In this document: positions 3,001 through 6,000 of the stretch, piece after piece
Layout of the letters: each line of letters opens with the position of its first letter
Position numbering within the stretch: position 1 is the first letter of the stretch
Assembly (NCBI GenBank): GCA_002731735.1
Contig: PCCM01000143.1
Span: 1-40,185 of the forward strand
Length of the DNA stretch: 40,185 bases
DNA from: Gemmatimonadota bacterium
Lineage (GTDB): Bacteria > Gemmatimonadota > Gemmatimonadetes > Longimicrobiales > Gaopeijiaceae
Direction: 5' to 3'
Program-made: the position numbers

Positions 3001-6000
3001 GGCCGAGCGGCGCGGGCAGCGCGTGATCCTGGCGCGCAACCTGCTGGGCACGCTGCGCAACCGGGAGCTGGCGCAGGCCGCGAAGGACATTGCAGGCGAA
3101 ACGGGCCTGGAGCATCGGCCCGTGGCCGACGGGCAGCGCGTGGCCGGCATCTACCGGCGCAGCGTCATGCTCGCCAGCGGGCGCTACGCGATGCTTGATG
3201 ACGGCATGGGCTTCTCGCTGGTGCCGTGGAAGCCGGTGATCGAACAGCGATTGGGGCAGCAGCTTTCCGCGACGGTTCGCGGCGGCGGGGCGTCCTGGGA
3301 GATTGGGCGGCATCGGGGGCCAACCATTTCTTGAGTCAAGGTAAAGCCACAAGCCGGTGGGCAAAATTAGATTTTATCCATAGATGGGTGATCAATCCAA
3401 AGCGTTACCAAAGGTTGGGATGCCAAAATTAGAATTATCTGTAATTTCGGATACACGGCCACATTCAAAGGCACGCTATCGCGTATATGGATTGATGGTT
3501 TCCGACCAGTGCCGCATGCGCCTTCCGCAGAATTTGGGGCAAATCCACGATGAAGAGAATAATTTGGACGTTCTGGTTTTTTGCGCTGGCATTGAGCGCT
3601 TTATGGCTTTTTACCGATACGCTCTGGCCTGCACAGTCCAACTACTTCGCCCTGCGAACGGTATGGATTCAATACAGCGGCGTACTGGCCATCGGCGCGA
3701 TGTCCGTGGCGATGATGTTGGCCACGCGCCCGGCGTGGCTGGAGCCCAGCTTGAACGGACTGGACAAGATATACCGCCTGCACAAGTGGCTCGGCATCGC
3801 TGCTCTGACCGCTGCAACAGTACACTGGCTGTGGGCGCAGGGTACTAAATGGGCCGTAGGCTGGGGCTGGCTGACGCGCCCCGCGCGCAAGCCCCGCGCA
3901 ACGGCCGATTCAATGGGCTCCATTGAATCGGCGCTGCGTGGCTGGCGTGGACTGGCCGAGGACTTGGGCGAATGGGCCTTCTACGCCGTCGCCGTGCTAC
4001 TGGTGCTGGCTTTGGTTAAGCGCTTTCCCTACCGGCTGTTCGCCAAGACGCACCACTGGATGGCAGCGATCTACTTGGTGCTGGCCTTCCACACCTTGGT
4101 GTTGGTGCAGTTCTCCTACTGGGCCCAGCCCGTGGGCTGGGCTTTGGCTATGCTGCTGGCGAGCGGCACGGTATCGGCGGTGTGGGTGCTGCTGGGCCGA
4201 GTCGGTGCGCAGCGCACCGCGCACGGTGTCATCGAATCGCTGCAGACCTACCCTGCGCTGAACGTGCTGGAAACCACCCTGCGGATGGACCCGGGCTGGC
4301 CCGGCCACCGGCCCGGACAGTTTGCCTTCGCCATGTCCAACCCGAAAGAAGGCCCGCACCCCTACACGCTAGCCTCAGCCTGGGTGCCGGAAGACCGGCG
4401 CATTACCTTCATCACCAAGGCGCTGGGCGACCACACCCGCCGGCTGCCTGAGCGCCTACGGGTAGGCGACCAGGTAACGGTCGAGGGGCCTTACGGCTGC
4501 TTCACTTTCGACGACGAGAAGGCCCGCCAGATCTGGATCGGCGCCGGCATCGGTATCACGCCATTCATTGCGCGCATGAAGTATTTGGCGCAGCATAAAG
4601 GCCAAGACGCACGCCCGGTCGATTTGTTTCATCCTACGAGCGACGTTGATCCGCAGGCCATCGAGAAACTGCGCGCCGACAGCCAGGCGGCCGGCGTTGT
4701 GCTGCATCTGCTCATCGACAAGCAGAACGGTCGCCTGACGGGTGAACGCCTGCGTGCCATGGTGCCGGGTTGGAAAGACGCCAGCGTCTGGTTCTGCGGC
4801 CCCACGGCCTTCGGCCGCGCGTTGCGCGCCGACCTGCTGGCCCAGGGGCTCGAGCCGGAGGCGTTCCACCAAGAGCTTTTCGAGATGCGCTGAACGGAAG
4901 AAAGCACATGCGCGTATTGATCGTGGAAGACTCGCAAACGCTGGCCGAAGCCCTGAGCCAGAGCCTTCAGTCGGAAGGCTATGCCTGCGATACAGCAGCC
5001 GATGGCGTGTCCGCGCTGAAGTTTCTTGCCAGCTACCGGTACGACGCCATCATTCTGGACTTGATGCTGCCCCGGCTGGACGGCTTTGGCGTGTTGCGCG
5101 CATTGGGCCGGGAGGCCCATGCCGCACCGGTGTTGGTGCTCTCCGCGCGCGAACTGCTCGACGACCGGGTGCGGGCCTTGGATGCGGGTGCCGATGACTA
5201 CCTGACAAAACCCTTCGAGCTAGCCGAACTGCTGGCTCGCCTGCGGGCGCTAGTACGGCGTCCGCCGCAACGGGACGTTCCAGTTCTGCGCCACGGCGAT
5301 CTGGAGGTCGATCCGCGCTCGCGCATCGCGAGGTTCAAGTGCATTGATCTTGGGCTCACGCCGAAGGAGTATGGACTGCTCGACTTGCTGCTGCGTCGGC
5401 GCGGCGCCACGCTGTCGCGCTCGCAGATTTTTGAACATTTGTACGACAGCCGCAGCGATGCATCGGACAAAGTGGTAGAGGTGATCGTCAGCACCTTGCG
5501 AACCAAGCTTGCCCAGTGCGGCCTGGATGAACTGATCGTGACACGCCGTGGCTTCGGCTACATCCTGCCCTGAACGATGGTACGTCCCGATTCCGAAGCC
5601 CTTTCTGATGCGAGTCAAGGCGGATCCTGGTCCTTGCAGCGGCGGCTGGCTGCCAGCTTGGTGATCTGCATTGGAGGAACCTTCGCGATCCTGTTTCCCG
5701 TCCTCGACTACTGGATTGACCACGAAATCTATCGACGGATGGATACCACCCTGATGCAACGATCAGCGGCGGTGGGGCGCGTGCTGCAGGAGTTGGATGC
5801 GAGAAAGCTCGAAAGCCTCATGCCGGAATATGAGCATGGCGGGCATACCGAGTTCTTCACGGTCTTCGATTCACAGACCCACCGGACCTTGCTACGGTCT
5901 CCCAGCAGTGCAGGCGCCCAGCTATCGCTTGGCCCGGTGGAGCAAGGCACCCCGCGCTATTACGACGTGACACTTCCGGATGGCCACGCGGGCCGCGCGC

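Follow-up and report, generated by a model that had tools for sequence, protein, structure and literature searches.

A NOX-like flavocytochrome b gene ahead of a metal-type two-component system on a Tn4371-family integrative and conjugative element

The window analysed here is one entire contig of 40,185 bp (PCCM01000143.1 of assembly GCA_002731735.1, binned as Gemmatimonadota), and it carries a gene for a protein resembling the NADPH oxidases (NOX). This NOX-like gene is the first accessory gene beside the relaxase gene of an integrative and conjugative element (ICE) of the Tn4371 family. From the 5' end, the window encodes a TraF-type S26 peptidase, an RlxS relaxase, the NOX-like protein, an OmpR-family regulator and a kinase (hmzR and hmzS), a VIT1 protein and a cytochrome b561, followed by a CzcB/CusA-type RND pump with its outer-membrane factor, a PAP2/EptA cassette, a LysR regulator, TraG, TrbB-TrbI and a Tn21-type transposon (Table 1). 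The NOX-like gene very likely encodes a long-form flavocytochrome b with a ferric reductase domain (FRD) of the Streptococcus pneumoniae NOX (SpNOX) type, and is very likely read from an upstream promoter through into hmzR-hmzS. The family is a known one and this member of it is uncharacterised; public records already contain the gene as well as the element and its regulators.

Architecture and nearest relatives of the NOX-like protein

The open reading frame, taken from the first ATG that follows a stop codon and extending to its own stop codon, gives a product of 447 aa. The protein has six transmembrane (TM) helices and two pairs of haem-ligand histidines (H78-x13-H92 and H168-x12-H181), and it carries the motifs HPYT (residues 270-273, continued by LAS), GAGIGITPF (331-339, with GIGITP from 333), FCGP (415-418, with CGP from 416) and ELF (442-444). 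The reading frame, the six helices, both histidine pairs and the motifs HPYTLAS, GAGIGITPF and FCGP each lie where a preliminary description of the sequence had placed them.

A profile search bore out the expected domains in part. The Pfam model Ferric_reduct (PF01794) matches residues 43-178 at 59.8 bits (cut-off 28, E 3.4e-16), while FAD_binding_8 reaches 21.8 bits on residues 234-316, marginally under its 22-bit cut-off, and NAD_binding_6 gives no match in the protein at E<=0.01. NCBIfam models of FNR modules (flavohaemoprotein, BenC and similar) span residues 253-445, far under their own cut-offs. Because Hmp/BenC-type models match the C-terminal half and NAD_binding_6 does not, this half is best regarded as a generic FNR-type dehydrogenase.

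Residue conservation was assessed in a set of 91 representatives (26-60% identity). All of them have H92 and H181, and no fewer than 90% retain H78, H168, H270, G333, P338, P418, E442 and F444. R36, at the periplasmic start of TM2, is Arg in 72 of the 91. The position four residues past H92, which corresponds to His-119 of NOX2, is Ala96; across the family it is Ala in 22, Glu in 19 and Lys in 13 of the 91 sequences, and His is never the majority residue. The periplasmic C-loop between TM3 and TM4 (residues 93-133) is about 32 aa longer than that of SpNOX and holds the family-conserved residues K100-W101, G106, R110-P111 and R113. This longer loop might cover the outer haem, which would perhaps be less exposed as a result.

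The FAD motif reads HPYTL and fails the literal filter H[PSA]F[TS][LIMV] on its Tyr, a residue typical of the entire clade at no less than 60% identity (136 of 226 sequences). Tyr is customary at that position of the RxY[ST] motif in FNR-family enzymes, and therefore it is not read as a defect here. The same filter was used in the bacterial NOX census of Hajjar et al. 2017, which would consequently have missed the proteobacterial subclade carrying HPYT.

Among PDB sequences, the best phmmer matches are the SpNOX entries 8qt6, 8qta and 8qq7 (E about 2e-23, with 1.8e-23 for 8qt6/8qq7). The SpNOX alignment pairs all four haem histidines, HPY with HPF, GIGITPF and CGP; a sequence alignment with eukaryotic NOX2 covered the dehydrogenase domain alone. 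An AlphaFold2 model built on the 91 representatives (pLDDT 95.5, pTM 0.92) predicts six long helices, with one short helix inside the loop that joins TM3 and TM4, and then a two-lobe beta/alpha dehydrogenase domain. When this model was used in Foldseek, SpNOX 8qt6/8qq7 ranked top (E 6e-21, TMt 0.79-0.80), followed by human NOX5, the dehydrogenase domain of E. coli flavohaemoglobin, NOX2 and DUOX1. Superposition of the motifs on structures of NOX and ferric reductase (FRE) proteins had been set beforehand as the point of refutation, and both the SpNOX alignment and the TMt values came out in favour of the match.

In SpNOX, the inner haem is bound by H69/H129 and the outer haem by H83/H142, and the C-terminal Phe F397 stacks on the FAD (PMC11564096). 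The NOX-like protein shares with SpNOX (8qq7, 8qt6; PMC5676040, PMC11564096, PMC11031084) a six-TM FRD with bis-His spacings of x13 and x12 on TM3 and TM5, together with a fused FNR-like FAD/NAD(P)H domain bearing HP[FY][TS], GxGxxP, CGP and a C-terminal aromatic residue, and neither has regulatory extensions. In contrast, their identity is only about 21%, Tyr replaces Phe in the FAD motif, and the NOX-like gene is ICE-borne with a two-component system directly after it.

NOX2, NOX5 and DUOX1 share the overall TM-plus-dehydrogenase fold (Foldseek E ~1e-13), but they are 15-19% identical to the NOX-like protein, which has no equivalent of His-119, no regulatory domains and no partner subunits, and whose dehydrogenase domain is nearer to Hmp/BenC-type FNR modules. 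The label "NOX-type" therefore stands for the architecture and not for the oxidase signature: Ala96 takes the place of His-119, which is part of that signature in the analysis of Zhang et al. 2013 (PMC3591440), and the dehydrogenase scores as a generic Hmp/BenC-type FNR module. The bacterial "long forms" (bFRE) defined in the same study, with three canonical domains and four haem histidines, likewise lack the NOX-specific His-119; the group was defined with no member characterised.

MsrQ/YedZ is also a membrane haem protein of the FRD family, but it has no fused dehydrogenase, an Arg replaces the first TM3 His, and its partner is the periplasmic molybdoenzyme MsrP. The NOX-like protein, in contrast, retains H78 and carries a fused FNR-like domain of 225 aa, and no MsrP gene lies at its locus. 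The proposal that this is the full fused FRD and FAD/NAD(P)H enzyme rather than the haem-only MsrQ/YedZ type is thus upheld. In E. coli, the MsrQ/YedZ locus adjoins a heavy-metal-type two-component system, HprSR.

SpNOX is the only characterised relative; the preliminary description had remarked that few bacterial NOX homologues have been characterised. FsrB of Bradyrhizobium was considered as a characterised proteobacterial FRD-type ferric reductase and rejected, as its paper assigns it to COG3182 (FoxB/PepSY_TM type). The structure of bacterial NOX-like enzymes is well described through SpNOX, and none of them has a known physiological role.

Table 1. Features of the 40,185-bp window (coordinates in window positions)
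Feature	Position	Strand	Remarks
NOX-like (SpNOX-like, long-form FRD) flavocytochrome b gene	3550..4893	+	447 aa; protein identical to Rmet_3017 of C. metallidurans CH34
Ferric-reductase TM domain	3676..4083	+	aa 43-178, most of TM2 to TM5; from Pfam, SpNOX alignment and conservation
Cytoplasmic FNR-like dehydrogenase domain	4216..4890	+	aa 223-447; HPYT 270-273, GIGITPF 333-339, CGP 416-418, F444
Candidate response-regulator box CCAAAG-N5-CCAAAG	3397..3413	+	just 5' of the ~3437 start; overlaps the -35 region
Second candidate box CCAAAG-N5-TCAAAG	8460..8476	+	yodB/hmzB divergent intergenic region
ICE backbone 5' of the cargo	316..3334	+	TraF-type S26 peptidase 316-903; RlxS/DUF3363 relaxase 869-3334
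hmzR, OmpR-family response regulator, heavy-metal (CzcR/CopR/SilR) type	4908..5573	+	name from PMC2864759
hmzS, heavy-metal-type sensor histidine kinase	5577..6989	+	TAA at 6042-6044
VIT1-family (Fe2+/Mn2+ transporter-like) membrane protein	7003..7710	-	equivalent to Rmet_3014
Prokaryotic cytochrome b561 (yodB)	7752..8333	-	equivalent to Rmet_3013; 2.9 kb downstream of the NOX-like gene
Heavy-metal efflux RND (HME-RND) genes	8556..14569	+	hmzB adaptor 8556-9848; hmzA CusA/CzcA-type pump 9862-12957; outer-membrane factor 13235-14569
ICE conjugation module 3' of the cargo	18818..30954	+	TraG coupling protein, TrbB, C, E, L, F(VirB8), G(CagX), I

The mobile element, its public copies and its host

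The window contains the features by which the Tn4371 family is recognised, namely an RlxS/DUF3363 relaxase, TraG, a Trb-type type IV secretion system and accessory genes between the relaxase gene and traG. The proposal that the NOX-like gene is cargo of a conjugative element is borne out by its place between RlxS and TraG. The contig begins within the maintenance module and stops within the Tn21-type transposon, and both ends of the element lie outside the window. The cargo is a mosaic in GC content. A low-GC cassette at 14463-17008 (0.48-0.52, with 0.66 around it) sits within the cargo immediately after the RND outer-membrane factor gene and encodes a PAP2 phosphatase and a phosphoethanolamine-lipid A transferase; the latter is nearest to MCR-5/EptA models, scoring 537 bits, far under the MCR-5 cut-off of 1250.

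The preliminary description had presented the arrangement of the gene at the head of a two-component operon on a mobile element as not known to be described, a view that does not hold. An identical 447-aa protein is found on 288 public contigs, and copies at least 90% identical are labelled Stenotrophomonas maltophilia, Burkholderia multivorans and Xanthomonadaceae. In all five distinct genomic places that were read, the order is uniform: ParA, DUF2840, S26 peptidase, relaxase, NOX-like protein, response regulator, histidine kinase, VIT1, cytochrome b561, CzcB and CzcA. At the DNA level, the window is 97-99.6% identical to these five loci, which are of the CMGI-4 type. One of them, about 97% identical to the window, lies at 3.27 Mb on the chromosome of Cupriavidus metallidurans CH34 (CP000352.1) and encodes the identical protein. 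The CH34 genome paper lists "hmzRS yodB hmzB-delta-A, Rmet_3016-3011" on CMGI-4, a Tn4371-family element (PMC2864759; also PMC11647585); since the exact protein is encoded just upstream of these hmz genes, the NOX-like gene corresponds to Rmet_3017, directly 5' of the published hmzRS.

In CH34, the gene is unnamed and already public, having been sequenced, annotated and mapped for its transcription start, although the gene itself has never been studied. In the literature searched, Rmet_3017 was found only as a landmark for a transcription start (PMC9045368), the supplements of PMC11647585 have no entry for it, and no paper was found that combines Tn4371 with a ferric reductase. The module is absent from the PLSDB plasmids, among which only a 72%-identical stand-alone homologue occurs, on a Sphaerotilus plasmid, and complete E. 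coli genomes gave no match.

The window and CMGI-4 share the identical protein, the gene order and the type of Tn4371-family element, but they differ in completeness. CMGI-4 lacks the conjugation module, and its truncated hmzA, called at 1009 aa, has been described as partially deleted. The window, in contrast, has a complete Trb/TraG module, a full-length hmzA of 1031 aa and an outer-membrane factor, and hence represents an intact form of the hmz efflux determinant. It also differs from CMGI-4 in a nonsense codon in hmzS and in the additional low-GC PAP2/EptA cassette. The NOX-like gene spreads on a conjugative element that is found in Burkholderia, Stenotrophomonas and Cupriavidus.

Beyond these near-identical copies, the family is large. 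A word-indexed search returned more than 4,446 homologues, most of them 443-449 aa long, under names that include [quoted passage not shown] and "ferredoxin reductase family protein". An exhaustive search of 50%-identity representatives yielded 375 clusters at E<=1e-30, and a scan of species genomes found relatives at no fewer than 576 matched stretches, nearly all in Alpha-, Beta- and Gammaproteobacteria.

Rather than residing in a Gemmatimonadota lineage, the contig has probably been mis-binned or stems from contamination. Its source bin comprises 2.16 Mb in 145 contigs and is 73% complete, and a different contig of this bin encodes a protein that falls into one cluster (90% identity or more) with a Gemmatimonadota-labelled protein. 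At E<=1e-30, homologues of the NOX-like protein are absent from the 70 genomes covered of the family to which the bin belongs and present in only five of 400 others of the phylum, a tally that covers this phylum alone and is silent on abundance in Pseudomonadota. Of the 123 contigs in the bin that reach 8 kb, the window contig deviates most in tetranucleotide composition, although it agrees with the bin in GC content. Mis-binning is favoured because the contig is up to 99.6% identical to elements of Cupriavidus, Burkholderia and Stenotrophomonas.

Transcription and the adjoining two-component system

The start of hmzR follows the stop codon of the NOX-like gene by 14 nt, with no terminator in the gap. 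In the transcription start atlas of CH34, a start lies 113 bp upstream of Rmet_3017 and is attributed to the hmzRS transcript, and hmzRS is expressed (PMC9045368); the start corresponds to a window position of about 3437. In three runs from two studies, RNA-library contigs extend across the junction between the NOX-like gene and hmzR, and two of them also bridge the junction between hmzR and hmzS. Such contigs span the whole stretch, and they carry no information on strand, ends or single transcripts and may stem from DNA carry-over, so that they lend weak support to co-transcription of the NOX-like gene with hmzR-hmzS. In one run, the contig begins at 3456, about 19 nt downstream of the CH34 start, with an Illumina adapter just before it; this may be either a transcript 5' end or a library artefact.

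A scan for sigma-70 consensus promoters upstream of the NOX-like gene found none. This is compatible with an activator-dependent promoter and is not taken as evidence for one. A candidate response-regulator box, CCAAAG-N5-YCAAAG, has just two matches in the window, and both are intergenic, one ahead of the NOX-like gene and the other ahead of the pump genes (Table 1). The region 5' of the NOX-like gene also contains two copies of a direct repeat, CAAAATTAGAwTT(T)TATC, at 3362-3378 and 3424-3439, the second of which overlaps the -10 region and the transcription start deduced from CH34.

For both HmzR and HmzS, the best-scoring models belong to the heavy-metal (CzcRS/CopRS/SilRS) subfamily, though with scores under the cut-offs. 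In the window copy, hmzS has an in-frame TAA as codon 156, where the periplasmic sensor domain ends, whereas this codon is TTA (Leu) in five other genomes and in contigs from four sequencing runs; therefore, either the sensor is truncated in this copy or the assembly contains an error. The earlier view that the NOX-like gene heads an operon with a two-component system stands as regards its proximity to hmzR and the CH34 start upstream, but the kinase gene is interrupted in the window sequence.

The pairing with hmzRS is not shared by the family. Directly downstream of the homologues, a same-strand regulator was found at none of 80 species loci, which indicates that the pairing is a trait of the cargo of the element. 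When all open reading frames within 2.5 kb at these 80 loci were clustered, no conserved partner emerged; the largest cluster consisted of generic two-component genes at 16 loci in mixed orientations, and every other cluster covered five loci or fewer. Three closer chromosomal homologues also stand alone; those of C. metallidurans and Rhodanobacter are 69-78% identical, and that of M. magneticum is 63% identical. As chromosomal members have no conserved neighbour, the genomic context of the family at large gives no hint of the acceptor.

These observations raise the question of whether the NOX-like gene came to lie beside hmzRS and the metal genes purely by chance as the cargo was assembled, with the enzyme being an independent, housekeeping-type reductase that rides on the element. 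The stand-alone chromosomal homologues, at 51-78% identity and with no same-strand regulator downstream, fit such a history, as does the GC mosaic of the cargo. A maximum-likelihood phylogeny is in keeping with it as well, since the nearest neighbours of the ICE copy there are a metagenomic sequence of 85% identity and a gene on the Rhodanobacter chromosome (support 99). However, the arrangement is fixed in each copy inspected, with five places read and 19 more being similar to them, the gap to hmzR is short and free of a terminator, the CH34 start assigned to hmzRS lies upstream of the NOX-like gene, and the same CCAAAG box precedes both the NOX-like operon and the pump operon. Taken together, a mere accident of assembly appears unlikely.

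Two further arrangements were noticed among the relatives. The chromid of C. metallidurans (at ~2.10 Mb) carries a second, 69%-identical paralogue between IS110-type transposases, beside a divergent PAS hybrid histidine kinase. A small clade of four mostly Competibacter-like homologues has a divergent response regulator-histidine kinase pair 280-430 bp upstream, an arrangement unlike that of the ICE, and this may represent an independent link to two-component control.

Candidate electron acceptors

The architecture of the NOX-like protein is well supported, as is the proposed direction of its electron flow. Cytoplasmic NAD(P)H would reduce the FAD of the C-terminal FNR-like domain, and electrons would then pass from FAD to an inner haem b (H78/H168), on to an outer haem b (H92/H181) and finally to a one-electron acceptor on the periplasmic side. 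As the host of the gene is Gram-negative, the acceptor side is expected to be the periplasm, unlike in SpNOX. The gene itself would be transcribed from the promoter upstream, through into hmzR-hmzS.

The tentatively preferred acceptor is a metal in the periplasm, as an ion or in a chelate (Fe(III) or Cu(II), for example); any reduction of O2 would then be incidental. The lean towards a periplasmic metal or one-electron reductase comes from the metal-type character of the regulators and from the VIT1 protein and RND pump nearby, and a reductase is preferred to an oxidase because Ala96 occupies the NOX2 His-119 position, which is Ala, Glu or Lys in the family. A protein or quinone partner and O2 are set out below as further candidates, and the remainder falls to some other acceptor.

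Several results weigh against the reading of the protein as a long-form flavocytochrome b that serves as a periplasmic metal reductase transcribed with hmzRS. In addition to the marginal FAD_binding_8 score, the missing NAD_binding_6 match and the lack of a conserved partner in the 80 species loci, SpNOX reduces Fe(III) very poorly (kcat 0.05 s-1), with O2 and cytochrome c being much better acceptors (PMC11564096). In CH34, hmz is regarded as a "recessive" determinant, hmzBA is almost silent and no phenotype is tied to the locus (PMC9045368, PMC11647585). The CCAAAG box is a lead and not a test of shared control, because its pattern was derived from the same two sites. Finally, the literature yielded no biochemistry for the NOX-like protein or a close relative.

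A dedicated superoxide-generating NADPH oxidase is a quite improbable alternative. Under it, periplasmic O2 would be the intended substrate, and the cytochrome b561 and VIT1 proteins would manage the consequences for superoxide and iron. The yodB gene, whose product is a cytochrome b561 of the CybB/YodB type, lies downstream on the opposite strand, and superoxide oxidase activity has been reported for E. coli CybB; a cytochrome b561 gene is, however, found near the homologue at only one of the 80 species loci. The fold and all cofactor motifs match those of SpNOX and the eukaryotic NOX enzymes, and R36 could, from its position in the sequence, match the arginine of the eukaryotic O2 site. Against this, the equivalent of the NOX-specific His-119 is missing, and HmzRS is a regulatory pair of the metal-sensor type. 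In vitro, O2 is indeed an acceptor for SpNOX (PMC5676040, PMC11564096), yet the authors of its cryo-EM study found no NOX-type O2 site and considered that O2 is possibly not the physiological acceptor of SpNOX homologues, suggesting a protein acceptor instead (PMC11564096).

That suggestion, together with the direct reduction of cytochrome c by SpNOX, leads to another unlikely candidate, in which the enzyme passes electrons to one particular partner, a protein or quinone located in the periplasm or the membrane, much as MsrQ does to MsrP but with a built-in NAD(P)H dehydrogenase. The long C-loop with its conserved residues could provide a docking surface for such a partner. This reading is weakened by the absence of a conserved neighbour across the 80 species loci and of any MsrP-like or other periplasmic redox gene in the operon.

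If the acceptor is a periplasmic metal, as tentatively preferred, the enzyme could also be a working part of a mobile hmz metal module, activated by HmzRS through the shared CCAAAG-N5-YCAAAG box and changing the redox state of periplasmic metals; as a whole, this extension is very doubtful. If true, a change in the redox state of Fe(III) or Cu(II) would ready the metal for the RND pump, the VIT1 protein and cytochrome b561, and the locus would constitute a transmissible, redox-coupled metal-resistance device of a kind not yet described for HME-RND systems. The gene offers a tractable test case, with an identical copy in the genetically amenable CH34, where its promoter has been mapped and a metal-type two-component system adjoins it, and its acceptor, if identified, would provide the first physiological function for this proteobacterial branch of the family.

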